This document shows, in pieces, positions 2,933 through 16,473 of a stretch of DNA of 19,695 nt. Origin of the DNA: a virus (taxonomy: Duplodnaviria; Heunggongvirae; Uroviricota; Caudoviricetes). Under the pieces are notes generated by a model. It did no database searches. It was not told the DNA's origin and saw nothing but the letters and a program-made list of their open reading frames with translations. The stretch is taken from the IMG/VR virus record IMGVR_UViG_2700989272_000006, positions 1 through 19,695 of that record. The stretch is one strand, 5' to 3'. Within the stretch, counting starts at the first letter, position 1, and every line of letters begins with the position of its first letter. The position numbers and the translations under genes were made by a program.

Positions 2933-3985
2933 TTATTTCCCCACCAGCTCGTTTATCTCTTTCACTGTCTGGTTAAACCGCTCTGACTCAAGCTCAACAC
3001 CTAAGGCCCGACGCCCCAGCGCCATTGCTGCTTTTATTGTGGAACCGGATCCCATAAAAAAATCAGCAACCAGATCACCAGGTCGACTACTGGCATTGAT
3101 TATTTGCCTGAGCATATCCGCCGGTTTCTCACACGGATGTTTACCCGGGTAGAACTGAACGGGTTTATGCATCCAGACATCGGTATAAGGCACGGAGACT
3201 GATACGGAGAAATAGCGCCGGAGAGATTTAAACTCATCCAGCAATTCAGAATATTTGCGATTCAGTGAATCATAAGATGCCACCAGCTGGTGGTGTGGTT
3301 GTTCCAGTTGTTGTTCCTGAAACTTCTCTGCCGCTATACGGGAAAACAGTGCCTGTAACTTCCGATAGTCAGCCTCATTCGGCAACTGCCACTGACTGGC
3401 ACCAAACCAGTGGGAAACCATATTTTTCTTACCTGTGGCTTCGGCAATTTGTTTTGCCGTTATACCCAGTTCGGCACGAGCATCCCTGAAATACGATATC
3501 AGCGGTGCCATTATGTGCTGTTTGAGTTCCCTTTCTTTTGCCGCATAGCCGTCACTTTTGCCGCGATATGGCCCCTGGTAATGTTCAGCAAACAGAACGC
3601 GCTCTGTGGCAGGAAAATATGCGCGCAGACTTTCTTTATTACACCCATTCCAACGTCCGGACGGCTTCGCCCAGATGATATGGTTAAGCACGTTGAAACG
3701 TTCACGCATCATGATCTCAATATCAGATGCCAGGCGATGCCCACAGAACAGGTAAAGGCTTCCGGCAGGTTTTAACACCCGCCAGAACTGGGCCAGACAG
3801 TGGTCCAGCCACTTAAGGTAATCTTCGTCCCCTTTCCACTGATTGTCCCAGCCGTTGGGTTTCACCTTGAAGTACGGCGGATCGGTAACAATCAGGTCAA
3901 TGGAATCATCAGGCAGGGACTGAATAAAATGCAGGCAATCAGCGTTGATTAAATCAGCACTGTTTATTTTTACAGTATTTTTCAT
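2933..3985 (-). CDS. DNA methyltransferase, beta-class amino-MTase (N6-adenine or N4-cytosine)
   Basis: N-terminal catalytic motif IV (IVTDPPYF) and C-terminal AdoMet-binding motif I (DFFMGSGST) in the circularly permuted beta-class order; 350 aa; no cognate restriction enzyme recognised adjacent. Confidence 0.85.
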
Positions 3986-10369: not shown

Positions 10370-10590
10370 GCCGCACCTCCGAGATGCTTCATGTTTTTTC
10401 CGGAGCGAAAGGCTATAAGCGGCATACTGACGCGGTAATTACGGCCCAGCGGTTCACAAATCACCTTCTGACATTCACGGTCAACCAGGCTAACACGTAG
10501 AACATGCCCTGCAGGCGTGGTGTACCACTGACCGGGGCGAGGACAACGGAAAGTCTGATTGGTAAATCGTTTGAAAATATTCCGGATCAT
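10366..10590 (-). CDS. Hypothetical protein (74 aa), translationally coupled within the replication operon
   Basis: ATG at 10590 overlaps the Rha-gene TGA stop (ATGA), and its own stop overlaps the O-like ATG (ATGA); no recognisable domain. Confidence 0.5.
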   Translation of the reverse strand: MIRNIFKRFTNQTFRCPRPGQWYTTPAGHVLRVSLVDRECQKVICEPLGRNYRVSMPLIAFRSGKNMKHLGGAA

Positions 10591-11735
10591 TTGCGCCCCC
10601 TTACCTCTGAAGAGTTCAGCGACGAATGAATAAGACGGGCAAGAAATGCCGCATCGTTAATTCGGTCATACAGACTTACAGCCAGAGGTGATTCAGCTTT
10701 TTCCAGCATGGGATAAAGCTGCTGCAACCAGACCTGATGAATTGATGAAATGTAGGAATAGAGAACGCTGGCGTTATGTGCAACGTCGCTCGGTACAGCG
10801 GGCTTTGAAAGCTGTTTCTCCATCTGGTTAAAGGCATTGATGTATGCCTCTTTGAACTGGGCAGCACGTTTACCCGTGAAACCCATAGCAAGAAACGCAA
10901 AGCCGTCGCGGGTTATTTGATAGCAAGGTAGTTTGCGGCCTGTGCAATCGGTGTAATCACTCACCGAAAAATTGCGGGCAGTGAATGATGCGGAACATTC
11001 AAGCGTGCGGATCTTTTTCAGTACATCGTCATGACGTTTGGAGAAGAAGTTGGCAACAGCCAGGGATGAAGTAACAGCCTGACCATCAACGATGGCAATT
11101 TCAGGTTGAGTGAGGGTTGGGATCGTAGCCATGATGGCAGTCTCCGATAACAGTGAATTACCTTCACCACCGGAAACGCCAATTTCGCTGGTGGTGAACT
11201 GAACGGGGTTGGCGTAACCGGCGTTATCGGAAACCGGCGCACCTTTCGGTGCCCCCGTCCAGCCCACCATAATTTGGGTGTGCACAGACGCAGACGATAA
11301 AAAAGACGCTGGCGCGTCATATATCGCCGATAACATTTCCAGGACGCCAATCCCGACACCCGCTTTATAAGGTGCCTGAACAGTGTAACGTCCCGGAATG
11401 GCAGAATCAATGTGCTGGTGGTCCTTCACACTCAACAAAATCACGCCTGAATTTCCACAAAGGACTAAAGCACTCATGCGGGTAGTCTTTGCGAAGATAG
11501 ATAACGCGCTGTGTTTCTGGCTCCCAACGAATAACATGGACATAAAGCCCTCTTCCGTCACGAAACCAGCGGTTAAGTTCCTGCACAACTCGCCCCCCAC
11601 AGTCAGGTAAAGTTCTCTGTGGTTACTTACAGCCAGGTGATTTGGTAATCTGCATTCATGCCGTAACAACAGGTGTTCAGCGACGCTGACCACCAGCTGT
11701 TGCGACAAACGGTTATTTGCCGTTAAACTGTTCAT
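10587..11735 (-). CDS. Rha-domain phage regulatory protein with about 200-aa N-terminal extension of unknown function
   Basis: Residues about 205-300 (VTSSLAVANFFSKRHDDVLKKIRTLECS...YQITRDGFAFLAMGFTGKRAAQFKEAYINAF) match the Rha/ORF6-type pattern; ATG at 11735 with GGAGAAA SD and ATGA overlap with the upstream stop support the long form. The N-terminal half has atypical composition. Confidence 0.6.
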   Translation of the reverse strand: MNSLTANNRLSQQLVVSVAEHLLLRHECRLPNHLAVSNHRELYLTVGGELCRNLTAGFVTEEGFMSMLFVGSQKHSALSIFAKTTRMSALVLCGNSGVILLSVKDHQHIDSAIPGRYTVQAPYKAGVGIGVLEMLSAIYDAPASFLSSASVHTQIMVGWTGAPKGAPVSDNAGYANPVQFTTSEIGVSGGEGNSLLSETAIMATIPTLTQPEIAIVDGQAVTSSLAVANFFSKRHDDVLKKIRTLECSASFTARNFSVSDYTDCTGRKLPCYQITRDGFAFLAMGFTGKRAAQFKEAYINAFNQMEKQLSKPAVPSDVAHNASVLYSYISSIHQVWLQQLYPMLEKAESPLAVSLYDRINDAAFLARLIHSSLNSSEVRGRK

Positions 11736-12326: not shown

Positions 12327-12527
12327 TTAATCTTTCGGATAGATATCCGGTCTTAAGTCAGATTTCGTAATTGCACCTGACGTGCATTGCTCAAGTTTTT
12401 TAGCCAGCACAAAACTGGCTTTTTTATAACCATTGAAAACCAGCCGTAAGTAGCCTGGTGTTGAGCCAACTTTTCCGGCCAACTCGCCCTGCTGTTCTTT
12501 GGTTAAAGAGTCCCAATACGCTTTCAT
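12327..12527 (-). CDS. cro: Cro-like repressor (66 aa)
   Basis: C-terminal part of ORF 12327..12830 (MKAYWDSLTKEQQGELAGKVGSTPGYLRLVFNGYKKASFVLAKKLEQCTSGAITKSDLRPDIYPKD) resembles Cro/YdaS-type HTH; internal ATG at 12527 has a GGAGG SD and lies just downstream of the PR-like promoter. The upstream part of the ORF overlaps cI antisense and is considered non-coding. Confidence 0.65.
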   Translation of the reverse strand: MKAYWDSLTKEQQGELAGKVGSTPGYLRLVFNGYKKASFVLAKKLEQCTSGAITKSDLRPDIYPKD

Positions 12528-12617
12528 ACAATATGTACCTCCGATATACATATTACATGATTGAGATGAACCTTCAAGATACTTGTACCCTATCGGTACA
12601 AAGGTTTTAATTTCGTT
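12528..12617. promoter_or_regulatory. OR-like divergent control region: two 19-bp palindromic operators (12533-12551 ATGTACCtccgaTATACAT; 12583-12601 TTGTACCctatcGGTACAA) and PR-like promoter (minus; -35 TTGAAG 12572-12577, -10 TAATAT 12550-12555)
   Basis: Perfect or near-perfect 7-5-7 palindromes sharing the half-site (A/T)TGTA(C/T)C, positioned between divergent cI-like and cro-like genes; the -10 overlaps operator 1. Confidence 0.65.
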
Positions 12618-13292
12618 ATGAAAACAGTCCATGACATCCGGCGGTCTAACGCCAGAAAACTGAGAGATGGTGTTGGCGGGAATTCTTCCTTTGCCACCAT
12701 GATTGATCGCGAGCCAACCCAGACCAGCAGGTTTATGGGAGATGGTGCTACTAAAAATATCGGTGACAGCATGGCACGGCACATCGAAAAATGTTTCGAC
12801 CTGCCTGTCGGATGGCTTGATCAAGAACACCAGACAACAAACATCACAAAAAAACCTGATGTTTCAATTACTAACAAACAAATAACGTTAGTCCCTGTCA
12901 TATCATGGGTACAGGCCGGAGCATGGAAAGAAGTTGGCTATTCTGAGGTTGATTTGAGCACAGCAGAAACTTATCCCTGCCCTGTACCCTGTGGCGAAAT
13001 GACTTATATCTTGCGGGTGATTGGTGATTCAATGATTGATGAGTACCGCCCGGGAGACATGATTTTTGTTGATCCTGAAGTCCCTGCCTGCCACGGTGAC
13101 GACGTTATTGCATTGATGCACGATACAGGCGAAACCACCTTCAAGCGGTTGATAGAAGATGGAACACAGCGTTACCTCAAAGCATTAAACCCAAACTGGC
13201 CTGAACCTTACATTAAGATCAACGGTAATTGCTCTATAATTGGTACAGTGATTTTCTCAGGAAAACCAAGAAGATACAAAATAAAGGCCTAA
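12618..13292 (+). CDS. cI: CI-like prophage repressor with C-terminal S24 (LexA-like) autopeptidase domain
   Basis: C-terminal domain with Ser/Lys dyad context (VIGDSM ... TFKRL) and Ala-Gly cleavage-site-like motif (VISWVQAGAW); N-terminal 70 aa HTH-like; divergent from cro with operators between. An in-frame TGA at 12567-12569 rules out an upstream extension. Confidence 0.85.
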   Translation: MKTVHDIRRSNARKLRDGVGGNSSFATMIDREPTQTSRFMGDGATKNIGDSMARHIEKCFDLPVGWLDQEHQTTNITKKPDVSITNKQITLVPVISWVQAGAWKEVGYSEVDLSTAETYPCPVPCGEMTYILRVIGDSMIDEYRPGDMIFVDPEVPACHGDDVIALMHDTGETTFKRLIEDGTQRYLKALNPNWPEPYIKINGNCSIIGTVIFSGKPRRYKIKA

Positions 13293-13304
13293 TCAATATT
13301 TATA

Positions 13305-13328
13305 ACCTGCTTCGGCAGGTTTTTTTAT
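13305..13328 (+). terminator. Intrinsic terminator after cI (acctgc-ttcg-gcaggt + TTTTTTAT)
   Basis: 6-bp GC-rich stem, GNRA-like tetraloop, 6-T run immediately downstream of cI stop (13290-13292). Confidence 0.7.
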
Positions 13329-13330
13329 AC

Positions 13331-13375
13331 TTGACAATGTACCCTTGAGATACATAATGTATCTAAAAGAAACAT
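13331..13375 (+). promoter_or_regulatory. pL-like promoter (-35 TTGACA 13331-13336, 16-bp spacer, -10 CATAAT 13353-13358) overlapped by two operator palindromes (13337-13355 ATGTACCcttgaGATACAT; 13357-13375 ATGTATCtaaaaGAAACAT)
   Basis: Consensus -35 and near-consensus -10 with proper spacing; operators share the half-site found in OR and sit in the spacer and over the -10, as expected for repressor control of an early-left promoter. Confidence 0.7.
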
Positions 13376-13978
13376 AACACAGGCAAGATTAAACTAAATT
13401 TGGTTGTAACACGGCGTATGGCACATGCGTCGTTAGCGGTCTGGGGACGTTAAAGGGGACAATCCACTCCTTGCTCGAGCAAACAAACCAGGTAGCCGGA
13501 ATGTGCAAGTCAATGATGATGCTGATAAGACGCCTAACCAGCGTGGCGATTCGGTTTGACGCCTGGGAAGAGACCAGGGTGCAACGATGAGGGCATTTAT
13601 GGAACCGCGACAAAGTGTGGTGCCGTAACTGGCTAAGTGCTCTCAGCGTTGTGGTGAATGCGCAGGCTGATGCGCGAAAGACATTGCAGCTATTGCGGAA
13701 AAGAGCTGTTCGGCGGGGCAATTAAACGCCCGTGAGAGTCTGAAATAACCGCAAGCCGGAGATCAGCACCGGTCACCACAACAGCCACTGCTTTGGCGGT
13801 ACCAGTTTGTACACTTGCTTCCGGCTGGTACCGCTCTTTTTACAAAACAGAGAAGAGCATCACCGGACGACGGGCTCATAACCCAATCCATCCGGGCGGC
13901 TGCCACCGCAGGTGTTCTTCTCTGTTTTGTGGAGAAACTAACCGACCTTGCAGGGTCGATATGATGAGGAGCAGCAAA

Positions 13979-14341
13979 ATGGCTAGCGAACGCAGTACTG
14001 ATGTGCAGGCATTTATCGGGGAGCTGGACGGCGGCGTATTTGAAACCAAAATCGGCGCAGTTCTCAGTGAAGTCGCTTCCGGTGTGATGAACACGAAAAC
14101 CAAAGGTAAGGTCTCGCTCAACCTGGAAATCGAACCATTTGATGAGAACCGTGTGAAAATCAAACACAAACTCTCATATGTTCGCCCGACTAACCGCGGG
14201 AAAATTTCCGAAGAAGACACCACCGAAACACCGATGTATGTCAATCGCGGTGGTCGCCTGACTATTCTGCAGGAAGACCAGGGACAATTACTGACTCTTG
14301 CCGGTGAACCTGACGGAAAACTACGCGCAGCAGGTCATTAA
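13979..14341 (+). CDS. Hypothetical early-left protein (120 aa; YfdP-like by size and position, unverified)
   Basis: ATG at 13979 with GAGGAG SD 7 nt upstream; the longer ORF-track form (from 13793) lacks an SD and is probably leader. Confidence 0.55.
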   Translation: MASERSTDVQAFIGELDGGVFETKIGAVLSEVASGVMNTKTKGKVSLNLEIEPFDENRVKIKHKLSYVRPTNRGKISEEDTTETPMYVNRGGRLTILQEDQGQLLTLAGEPDGKLRAAGH

Positions 14342-15895: not shown

Positions 15896-16473
15896 ATGTT
15901 TTCGAAATGGAAGGGTTTCTTCGCGGGAAATGTGTACCGCGAGATCTGAAAGTGAACGAAACAAACGCTGAGTACCTGGTGCGTAAATTTGCTGAAGCTG
16001 AGGCCAAGTGCGCGGCGCTGGCTGAACGTATCGAAGAGTTACAGACAAAACCTACGCCAGATTCGTTTGGCATCATCGGTGAAAACATTCGAACACAGGA
16101 TAATCGAATAACGTCAGACCCTATGTTTTGTGTGTATCAAAAGCGCGAAATTGTTGTTGATGCTGATTATGACTATGACCGGATTGTCTGGGTTGATGAA
16201 GATAGCAATGAAGCCAATAAACTCCAAAGTCGTCGTCTCGAACTACTTCATGAAAACTTTCGGGAACCACCAGAAAAATGGCGGCGCGTTGCTGTGAAAG
16301 ATATTGATGAATTCGTTACCTGCTGTTTCACCGAACAGGGTTGTAAAGACTACCTGGCAGCCAATGGTCACAATCTTCGCTTGCCATTTATATATGTAAA
16401 AAGCGGTTTCAGGAACGCTGAATATATCGGCATAAGAAACTGGCTTGCTGGCATTCGCATCAAAGGAGAGTGA
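15886..16473 (+). CDS. Hypothetical protein (195 aa)
   Basis: ORF overlapping the stop of the HD gene by 10 nt; acidic, coiled-coil-like N-terminus; no recognised domain. Confidence 0.55.
   Translation: MRMNVFEMEGFLRGKCVPRDLKVNETNAEYLVRKFAEAEAKCAALAERIEELQTKPTPDSFGIIGENIRTQDNRITSDPMFCVYQKREIVVDADYDYDRIVWVDEDSNEANKLQSRRLELLHENFREPPEKWRRVAVKDIDEFVTCCFTEQGCKDYLAANGHNLRLPFIYVKSGFRNAEYIGIRNWLAGIRIKGE

Follow-up and report, generated by a model that had tools for sequence, protein, structure and literature searches.

The immunity region of phage lambda carries 17-bp operators, OR1-3 and OL1-3, with OR centre spacings of 24 and 23 bp; OR and OL are 2.3 kb apart and rex genes are present. The Stx2 phage 933W has three OR and two OL operators, as given in a review (PMC8065619, citing Tyler et al. 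2004). In prophage e14 of E. coli K-12 the repressor and Cro genes are annotated as ymfK and ymfT. A preprint (bioRxiv 10.1101/2020.11.19.390815) characterises this repressor, also named CohE, as CI-like and SOS-responsive. The genes of e14 (listed in PMC12132413) co-vary with sulA and recN, and both H2O2 and the loss of fur induce them (PMC10602906). The YmfT regulon appears in the Reg-Seq and iModulon papers, which leave its operators unmapped (PMC12132413, PMC10602906), and the literature searched contained no binding, footprinting or reporter data for operators of the e14/SfV type.

The DNA analysed here is a stretch of 19,695 nt from a tailed phage (IMG/VR record IMGVR_UViG_2700989272_000006), referred to as the window. 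Its immunity module is the e14/SfV cassette, an immunity type very common in E. coli prophages, with a YmfK/CohE repressor and a YmfT/CroE protein; the feature is real and known in kind, and it represents no new kind of regulation. An initial annotation had described an immunity region with related 19-bp operators in an OR-like and a pL/OL-like cluster, whose sequence defines an immunity type. This description holds, the number of operators at OR was misread, and the well-known cassette itself had not been recognised.

The e14/SfV immunity cassette

The repressor gene cI (12618..13292, plus strand, 224 aa, YmfK/CohE type) and cro (12327..12527, minus strand, 66 aa, YmfT/CroE type) are divergent and flank an operator-bearing gap, as is found in lambdoid immunity regions. 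Over 1.1 kb the module is 95.5% identical to the K-12-type e14. The cI protein is 100% identical to that of SfV and at least 99% identical in 26 phage records, and 1324 of 5426 complete E. coli genomes carry module DNA of at least 95% identity. The cro gene carries this name in SfV and cdtI and is called ymfT in E. coli. In the SfV GenBank record a "putative operator region" is annotated that corresponds exactly to 12533-12601 of the window (69 bp).

With a near-identical repressor and Cro and the same half-sites, the window belongs to the e14/SfV group; its genes and all five operator sites recur in e14, SfV, SfIV, cdtI, Ayreon, 2H10 and Stx2c-converting phages. In alignments with e14 and SfV the operator half-sites are identical apart from OL2, and only point differences are seen, located in the spacers and in OL2, which reads ATGTATC-TAAAA-GAAACAT in the window and ATGTACC-CAAGA-GAAACAA in e14/SfV. 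Downstream of OL2, from about 13390, the window continues with a different mosaic module than e14/SfV.

From the assignment to the e14/SfV/cdtI/Stx2c immunity group one can predict SOS inducibility and relationships of superinfection immunity, also for the toxin-carrying relatives. The analysis further provides a precise map of five operator sites with predicted promoter positions for YmfK/CohE, a repressor that roughly one in four complete E. coli genomes encodes, K-12 among them. In practical terms the value is small.

Operators and promoters between cro and cI

All operators of the window are 19 bp long with a 7-5-7 architecture and the consensus ATGTACC-N5-GGTACAT. Four of them were already listed in the initial annotation, two between the divergent genes and two overlapping a pL-like promoter, and direct reading of the sequence reproduced their positions and architecture exactly. 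The search of the window for WTGTAYC-N5-GRTACAW, partly circular as the pattern was built from the tested sites themselves, gave five matches with up to two mismatches versus 0.56 expected, all within the two regulatory intergenic regions, and none of 200 shuffles reached five. When three mismatches were allowed the excess was gone (10 matches versus 6.55 expected). The fifth match, at 12566-12584, is a site that had been missed.

The independent support that this circularity calls for is supplied by conservation across genera. The comparison set comprised 21 sequences, namely the window, phages SfV, yong2 and EPP-1, K-12 e14 and further loci from at least 15 genera; cI identity within the set is 73-100%, and it contains 19 distinct OR and 20 distinct OL sequences. 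The three OR sites, named O-A, O-B and O-C from cro towards cI, have fixed offsets from the cI ATG in the 21 sequences (-85, -52 and -35, respectively). In detail, O-A is found at -85/-86 in every related locus and O-B at -52/-53 in 20 of 21 loci, the remaining locus keeping its left half. Half-site columns are nearly invariant (0.09-0.24 bit; for the right half of OL2 see below), and the spacers of O-C and OL1 vary freely (about 1.5 bit). We regard the palindromes as real sites of the repressor-binding type.

Three 7-5-7 sites are located inside the 90-bp gap between cro and cI. O-A (12533..12551, ATGTACC-TCCGA-TATACAT), the OR1-like operator, was read from the sequence and fits the pattern; it spans from the end of the predicted pR -10 to about +10 and includes the Shine-Dalgarno sequence of cro (CCTCC at 12538-12542, GGAGG on the minus strand). 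Its half-site entropy is 0.24 bit versus 0.78 bit for the 14 nt that separate it from O-B. O-C (12583..12601, TTGTACC-CTATC-GGTACAA), the OR3-like operator, is a perfect palindrome, with 0.16 bit in the half-sites versus 1.56 bit in the spacer among the 19 distinct sequences. O-B (12566..12584, ATGAACC-TTCAA-GATACTT), the OR2-like operator, matches the pattern with two mismatches and has 2 bp in common with O-C. The centre spacings are 33 bp for O-A/O-B and 17 bp for O-B/O-C.

The promoter pR is predicted on the minus strand from the sequence and its relatives, with TAATAT at 12550..12555 as -10 and TTGAAG at 12572..12577 as -35, separated by 16 nt. Relatives carry TAATAT or CATAAT in the -10 register, and the TTG of the -35 is conserved in all loci (consensus ..cAAG, plus strand). 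The consensus promoter scan gave no call for pR, which was placed by manual reading and conservation.

O-B is centred on this -35 hexamer, shares its last two bases with O-C and scores lowest among the five matches (PWM score 13.2 versus 18.6-21.4 for the others). One could therefore take OR to be truly bipartite and explain the conservation of 12566-12584 solely by the pR -35 region and the bases in common with O-C. We consider this improbable, as ATGAACC, the left half, is part of the promoter spacer, for which sigma-70 sets no sequence requirement, and is nevertheless conserved across the 19 distinct sequences, in contrast to the neighbouring 14 nt. It matches the half-site consensus at six of seven positions and is paired, at the proper 7-5-7 distance, with a right half containing GRTAC, and with a PWM built solely from the four annotated sites O-B ranks fifth among the 19,677 positions of the 19.7-kb window. 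Of the 14 half-site columns of O-B 10 are invariant, and the half-site entropy is 0.19 bit. The position of O-B and its particular deviations, always ATGAACC and ..ACTT, are kept in the 19 distinct OR sequences, which come from at least 15 genera and include both prophages and phages, and such constant deviations are expected of a tuned weak site. Owing to this conserved third site OR is tripartite, with an ordinary lambda-like layout, and not limited to two operators as had been annotated. As to a fourth OR site, the PWM scan returned just isolated weak half-sites, for example TTGTATG at 12525-31 inside cro.

For the promoter of cI, pRM (12583..12611, plus strand), a -35 TTGTAC at 12583-12588 and a -10 TTTAAT at 12606-12611 are predicted with a 17-nt spacer. 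The -10 ends 6 nt upstream of the cI ATG, which predicts a leaderless cI mRNA. A 'TaAt' is located 6-7 nt upstream of the ATG in most relatives, and the invariant -10 positions A and T are kept in 20 of 20 distinct rows. The ymfK mRNA of e14 is leaderless by dRNA-seq (PMC4681348), and e14 is identical to the window from the pRM -10 through the cI ATG. The leaderless start of the e14 orthologue thus fixes the +1 of pRM at or adjoining 12618. With pRM anchored in this way, the centre of O-B is at -43 of pRM and the cI-proximal O-C lies inside pRM, covering its -35 and spacer with its centre at -26, as in lambda.

The pL region

Downstream of cI an intrinsic terminator of the cI transcript was found by the terminator scan (13304..13327, plus strand; AACCTGC-TTCG-GCAGGTT followed by a T run). 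This terminator is annotated in SfV and Ayreon, and its stem shows compensatory changes across loci. It is followed by pL (13331..13358, plus strand), with TTGACA, a 16-nt spacer and CATAAT, which agrees with the consensus at 11 of 12 positions. The -35 of pL is invariant in the 20 distinct sequences and the promoter is annotated as such in Ayreon. The second operator cluster is located at pL, and this arrangement downstream of the cI terminator is kept in all relatives.

OL1 (13337..13355, ATGTACC-CTTGA-GATACAT) fills the pL spacer and extends into the -10, and OL2 (13357..13375) begins in the -10 and covers the +1. Throughout the comparison set both sites abut the invariant TTGACA. OL1 is perfect everywhere, with a half-site entropy of 0.09 bit versus 1.48 bit in the spacer. 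OL2 is the weaker and less conserved of the two: its left half is nearly invariant (0.11 bit) and its right half decays (1.22 bit), matching at just two or three of seven positions in 6 of 20 relatives. This decay, together with the overlap of the left half with the -10/+1 region, would suit an OL that functions with OL1 as its one operator, OL2 being a conserved half-site or initially transcribed sequence that binds no dimer of its own. Such an arrangement is conceivable but seems unlikely to us, since in the window the right half matches at six of seven positions and the site has a PWM score of 19.06, as high as that of O-A. In addition, the conservation of the left half ATGTACC exceeds the needs of a -10/+1 region, and the centres of OL1 and OL2 are 20 bp apart and therefore on the same face of the DNA, which would suit cooperative filling of a weak site.

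We thus treat OL as a pair of operators. Two sites are present in each of the 20 distinct OL sequences (21 sequences counting the window), in agreement with the initial annotation. A third degenerate operator, which would have made both clusters lambda-like, was found at OR only; a lambda-like tripartite OL is absent, as the pattern search near pL gave no further match with up to three mismatches and the PWM scan of the 21 loci scored only the OL1 and OL2 positions beyond the cI stop (downstream flanks of 1.5-4 kb for most loci, less for L014, L021 and L024). Two half-site-like heptamers at 13404-13410 and 13420-13426 were considered as OL3 and rejected, as their 9-nt spacer is wrong and the DNA is not conserved. 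A bipartite OL is not new, since the same layout of three OR and two OL operators is given for 933W in the review cited above.

The terminator scan also lists O-C (12583-12601), with a stem of 7 bp and a T-rich tail behind it, which raises the question whether the palindromes act as RNA hairpins or terminators instead of protein-binding DNA sites. This can be given hardly any credence. The arms of the palindromes are invariant rather than co-varying and drift is confined to the 5-nt centre, in contrast to the compensatory changes in the true terminator at 13304-13321. Moreover, with a leaderless cI mRNA both transcripts start downstream of the OR sites, and at pL the motif occurs again, placed so that it would block the promoter. 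Searches with Rfam (gathering threshold, and E≤1 over 13290-14050) yielded no hit that bears on the operators or a leader, and ARAGORN found no tRNA.

Repressor, Cro and the proposed switch

The C-terminal part of cI is an S24 autopeptidase domain (Pfam Peptidase_S24, residues 93-212, E=1.5e-26), as had been annotated. Structures of the lambda cI C-terminal domain match it at about E=2e-9, whereas the N-terminal domain has no detectable homology to lambda and matches, apart from PHROG repressor families, the Rep protein of SPC32H (5d50, weak, E=0.0026). Ala100-Gly101 is invariant in 20 homologues, in which the motifs around Ser138 and Lys176 (G-x-SM and TFKRL) and the helix-turn-helix stretch R-x-x-TQ-x-SR of the N-terminal domain are conserved as well; substitutions are limited to flanking or x positions. 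Cro has a helix-turn-helix, with weak Pfam matches to YdaS_toxin/HTH_3 and a match to the PHROG 35 transcriptional repressor (E=3e-15). The repressor of 933W belongs to a different specificity family; 933W-type cI proteins match cI of the window over S24 only, with about 33-35% identity.

The locus probably works as the lambda-type switch between lysis and lysogeny of the e14/SfV immunity group. In this model both cI and Cro would recognise the 19-bp operators, and the placement of the three OR sites would suit a repressor that blocks the predicted pR and autoregulates pRM. In the lysogen, cI on O-A and O-B would shut pR, and from O-B it would probably stimulate the weak leaderless pRM. O-C would be filled by cI at high concentration, or by Cro after induction, and thereby shut pRM. 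At the other end, the abutting OL1 and OL2 would jointly block the strong pL promoter. Upon DNA damage, activated RecA is expected to trigger self-cleavage of cI at Ala100-Gly101 by the Ser138/Lys176 dyad, which would release pR and pL.

The pR operon also contains, downstream of cro, an Ash/Rha antirepressor-like ORF with matches to a C4-type antisense RNA and isrK RNA, and induction may for this reason have a second layer. Together with the weak match of the N-terminal domain to the antirepressor-controlled SPC32H Rep and the presence of CTGT-N8-ACAG sequences in the window, this could indicate that induction occurs mainly by an antirepressor, as in the Gifsy phages and SPC32H, and not by RecA-stimulated self-cleavage of cI. 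We regard this as very doubtful. The cleavage site and the Ser/Lys dyad are intact and conserved, whereas Gifsy-type repressors, to our knowledge, have neither. An antirepressor encoded in the cI-repressed pR operon cannot be made first, and e14 lacks the full antirepressor region and is still SOS-responsive. Three LexA-like CTGT-N8-ACAG boxes are present in the window, none of them at OR or OL, and no promoter adjoins the box at 11617.

In its general plan the locus resembles lambda, with divergent cI and cro, a tripartite OR overlapping the (here predicted) PR and PRM, the middle OR site at about -42/-43 of PRM, a leaderless cI mRNA, OL/pL downstream of the cI terminator and an S24-type repressor with an Ala-Gly cleavage site. 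The operators are 19 bp (7-5-7, TGTAC core) instead of 17 bp, OL has two sites instead of three, and OR and OL are about 750 bp apart compared to 2.3 kb. Unlike in lambda, rex genes are absent from the window, and downstream of pL no homologue of N was recognised.

The OR geometry differs as well. The 33 bp between O-A and O-B, compared to 24 bp in lambda, do not allow pairwise cooperativity of the lambda style to be assumed, and the 17 bp between O-B and O-C, compared to 23 bp, come with the 2-bp overlap that makes their simultaneous occupancy in the manner of lambda uncertain. The best palindrome is O-C, the site predicted to shut pRM, which is unlike the order of cI affinities in lambda. 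Tentatively, and with a low expectation that it holds, this uneven, strictly conserved geometry, along with an OL of one strong and one degenerate site, may encode a switch logic unlike that of lambda. For example, occupancy of O-B and O-C could be mutually exclusive, so that activation and repression of pRM would compete directly; cooperativity might act across three helical turns from O-A to O-B; and an OL-OR octamer loop of the lambda style might possibly not form. As K-12 carries the same cassette in e14, such a logic would be easy to test.

Predicted operator sites between cro and cI and at pL

The 90-bp gap between a cro-like ORF (66 aa, 12327-12527, minus strand) and the cI repressor ORF (224 aa, 12618-13292, plus strand) contains the palindromes O-A (12533-12551, ATGTACC-TCCGA-TATACAT) and O-C (12583-12601, TTGTACC-CTATC-GGTACAA), while OL1 (13337-13355, ATGTACC-CTTGA-GATACAT) and OL2 (13357-13375, ATGTATC-TAAAA-GAAACAT) overlap the pL promoter. 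Direct reading of the window returned all four at exactly the coordinates proposed in the initial annotation. When its degenerate pattern was searched in the 19.7-kb window with at most two mismatches, five matches were obtained against 0.56 expected (equalled by 0 of 200 shuffles), all confined to the cro-cI gap and the pL intergenic region. At up to three mismatches the signal is gone (10 matches, 6.55 expected). As the pattern was taken from the very sites tested, this test is partly circular; independent support comes from comparison with relatives. The best-supported reading of the sequence is that the palindromes are predicted repressor-binding sites of 19 bp with a 7-5-7 architecture; a literature search found no paper testing these operators.

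The fifth match, O-B (12566-12584, ATGAACC-TTCAA-GATACTT), lies between O-A and O-C and shares its final two bases with O-C. Using a weight matrix built from the four palindromes alone, O-B ranks fifth of 19,677 window positions with a score of 13.2, the next-best position elsewhere reaching 11.3. The initial annotation was right in its outline of the immunity region, but it had recognized only two operators at OR; a third 7-5-7 site is present, the very finding it had named as contradicting this count.

Scanning one genome per species gave 19 loci with cI 73-100% identical, from Escherichia, Pseudocitrobacter, Klebsiella, Leclercia, Atlantibacter, Phytobacter, Enterobacter, Pantoea, Trabulsiella, Kluyvera, Limnobaculum, Rahnella, Edwardsiella, Entomohabitans and others. 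Eighteen were analyzed, L009 being left out as one of three identical E. coli matches. Together with the window, SfV, e14, Hafnia phage yong2 and Edwardsiella phage EPP-1 they provided 19 distinct OR and 20 distinct OL sequences. One locus, L024 (NZ_SZPQ01000090.1, cI 73% identical, same operators), comes from an assembly labelled 'Martelella alba', an alphaproteobacterium; the cassette is enterobacterial and the contig very short (4.2 kb). This is probably assembly contamination.

The OR sites keep fixed offsets from the cI ATG (-85/-86, -52/-53 and -35/-36), O-B in 20 of 21 loci with its left half persisting in the 21st, and follow the consensus aTGTACCTCC....TACAt / aTGAACC..cAAG..aCTT / TTGTACC.....GgTACa. 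Mean column entropies of half-sites and spacers were 0.24 and 0.46 bit for O-A, 0.19 and 0.68 bit for O-B, 0.16 and 1.56 bit for O-C, and 0.09 and 1.48 bit for OL1, with 0.78 bit for the stretch between O-A and O-B. The O-A spacer is partly conserved because it holds the cro Shine-Dalgarno sequence (GGAGG, minus strand), and that of O-B because of the TTG of the pR -35. A bipartite OR is contradicted, since ATGAACC is invariant though located in promoter-spacer DNA, and O-B stands in the correct register. Its departures from the consensus (A at left-half position 4, ..ACTT on the right) are always the same, as a deliberately sub-optimal site would predict and a chance match would not. That the palindromes are RNA hairpins or terminators is likewise contradicted, as their arms are invariant and their loops free, and the OR sites lie upstream of both transcription starts. 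In the same relatives the repressor retains its helix-turn-helix core R-x-x-TQ-x-SR, its Ser motif (G-x-SM) and its Lys motif (TFKRL), and the sequence at the Ala-Gly cleavage site (VQAGAW) never varies, in keeping with the unchanged operator half-site.

Promoters and site geometry

For pRM, a candidate -10 TTTAAT (12606-12611) of the conserved TaAT type lies 6-7 nt before the cI ATG in most loci, and cI has no usable Shine-Dalgarno sequence. By dRNA-seq in K-12, the transcript of ymfK, the e14 cI gene, is among just five E. coli mRNAs found to be leaderless (PMC4681348). Since e14 and the window are identical from the -10 to the cI ATG, the pRM +1 is placed at about 12618, which makes TTGTAC (12583-12588), the left half of O-C, the -35. 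Relative to this +1 the centres lie at -26 (O-C), -43 (O-B) and -76 (O-A). In lambda the centre of OR2 is at about -42 of PRM; O-B would therefore occupy the classical activating and O-C a self-repressing position.

A predicted pR reads on the minus strand as TTGAAG (12577→12572), a 16-nt spacer and TAATAT (12555→12550). Related loci conserve its TTG and, in the same register, either TAATAT or CATAAT; a simple promoter scan made no call at pR. On this reading O-A would span the end of the -10 to about +10, and O-B would lie over the -35.

The pL promoter (TTGACA-16-CATAAT, 13331-13358) matches the consensus at 11 of 12 positions and follows an intrinsic terminator (13304-13321). OL1 occupies the -35/-10 spacer, and OL2 begins within the -10 and spans the start site; their centres are 20 bp apart, so that both sites face the same side of the helix. 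Across all sequences compared, the -35 TTGACA never varies and OL1 stays perfect. Of OL2 the left half is retained (0.11 bit), whereas the right half is drifting (1.22 bit), with just 2-3 of 7 matches in six relatives, and conservation stops at this site. OL may effectively be a single site in some relatives, but this is less likely here, where the right half matches 6 of 7 positions. Neither alignment nor a weight-matrix scan, which covered 1.5-4 kb of downstream flank for most loci and less for three, revealed a third OL site in any locus; the bipartite OL of the initial annotation holds, but has a precedent in 933W.

Identity of the cassette and the proposed switch

Over its 1.7 kb the region shares 99% identity with phage cdtI, 98.7% with a series of Stx2c-converting phages and about 97% with SfV. 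Its cI protein equals that of SfV (100% identity) and is at least 99% identical in 26 phage records; intermediate relatives occur in two phage records only, yong2 (79%) and EPP-1 (74%). At 95% identity or more the module is found in 1324 of 5426 complete E. coli genomes, annotated as ymfK (LexA family) and ymfT. It is the immunity region of the K-12 e14 element, and the cassette is the widespread, already annotated e14/SfV module. The SfV GenBank feature "putative operator region", converted via the cro/cI coordinates, corresponds to 12533-12601, from the first base of O-A to the last base of O-C, so the cluster was already noticed when SfV was sequenced.

The best-supported model is an ordinary lambda-type switch, in which the order of binding, cooperativity and activation are inferred. 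In this model pR would be blocked by repressor at O-A and O-B, and pL by repressor at OL1 and OL2; the leaderless pRM would be under positive and negative autoregulation via O-B and O-C. Cro would act at the same sites in the lytic direction, and RecA-stimulated self-cleavage at Ala100-Gly101 (Ser138/Lys176) would inactivate the repressor. The departures from lambda concern detail and not kind: 19-bp 7-5-7 operators, OR centre spacings of 33 and 17 bp with a 2-bp O-B/O-C overlap, the best palindrome in the OR3-like position, a bipartite OL with a weak second site, and an OR-OL distance of just about 750 bp. Three OR and two OL operators are already on record for 933W, and four OR sites for H-19B (review PMC8065619).

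The S24 domain noted initially was found in the repressor, whose C-terminal domain is homologous to that of lambda cI. The e14 repressor, CohE, is described as an SOS-responsive CI-like repressor (bioRxiv 10.1101/2020.11.19.390815), and sulA and recN fall in one group with the e14 "YmfT iModulon", which responds to H2O2 and fur loss (PMC10602906, PMC12132413). Together these support an SOS linkage. Primarily antirepressor-driven induction is unlikely, as cI retains the full cleavage apparatus and the antirepressor-like gene lies within the repressed pR operon.

The pL leader and other elements

A sharp mosaic boundary lies at about 13390, directly past OL2. Here e14, SfV and most enterobacterial relatives read ACAGGCAGGACGCCCACGA..., but an unrelated leader follows in the window, cdtI, Ayreon and the Stx2c phages. 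The immunity cassette that is exchanged therefore comprises cro-OR-cI-terminator-pL/OL. For the remainder of the window the best match is mEp460 (97.5% over 68%), which has a different repressor and carries the whole leader as well. In yong2 a tRNA-Gly(CCC) gene, absent from the record's annotation, lies in the untranslated leader directly 3' of the homologous pL/OL (L004, the yong2 locus, 2867-2940).

From pL to the first credible gene (ATG at 13979), about 600 nt (13376-13978) contain no convincing ORF and no Rfam family. Within this mosaic, 13398-13575 is ~78% identical to P1 intergenic DNA immediately upstream of ban (DnaB-like). A 40-nt core (13636-13676) is ~90% identical in well over 100 phages. 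Among these are lytic Klebsiella phages, T1-like and Vi1-like, and HK620, whose late leader has the core between qut and tQ. The aligned core, GAGTGCTCT(TT/CA).CG.TGTGGTGAATGCGCAGGCTGATGCGC, combines a boxA-like TGCTCTTT with a G/T-rich tract and a 5-bp hairpin, and may be a Nus-factor (boxA-type) antitermination signal.

Immediately before the first pL gene, 13796-13934 holds two strong hairpins (fold of 13780-13985: -93.4 kcal/mol, z=-7.8). The first, GCGGTACCAG...CTGGTACCGC (13796-13834), resembles a terminator and has a T run after it (13837-13841); this run is contained in the 5' arm of the second, a roughly 25-bp stem (13837-13934). The hairpins imply a need for antitermination in transcription from pL, although an N homologue is not evident.

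Rfam matches to C4 antisense RNA (82.8 bits) and isrK (61.5 bits, with its own terminator at 11318-11299) lie at 11187-11375 on the minus strand, inside the open 382-aa frame 10587-11735. Pfam and PHROGs assign this ORF Ash plus Rha/antirepressor, with the RNA matches falling on its 'Ash' domain. Either coding sequence here has an immI-like antisense-RNA control module embedded in it, or the ORF is not translated in its 5' half.

Exact LexA-box-like CTGT-N8-ACAG occurs three times against 0.25 expected, at 3960-3975, 11617-11632 and 16323-16338. No promoter was found beside the 11617 box. The box at 3960-3975 (CTGTTTATTTTTACAG), located where the minus-strand ORF 2933-3985 starts, shares the AT-richness of real LexA boxes.
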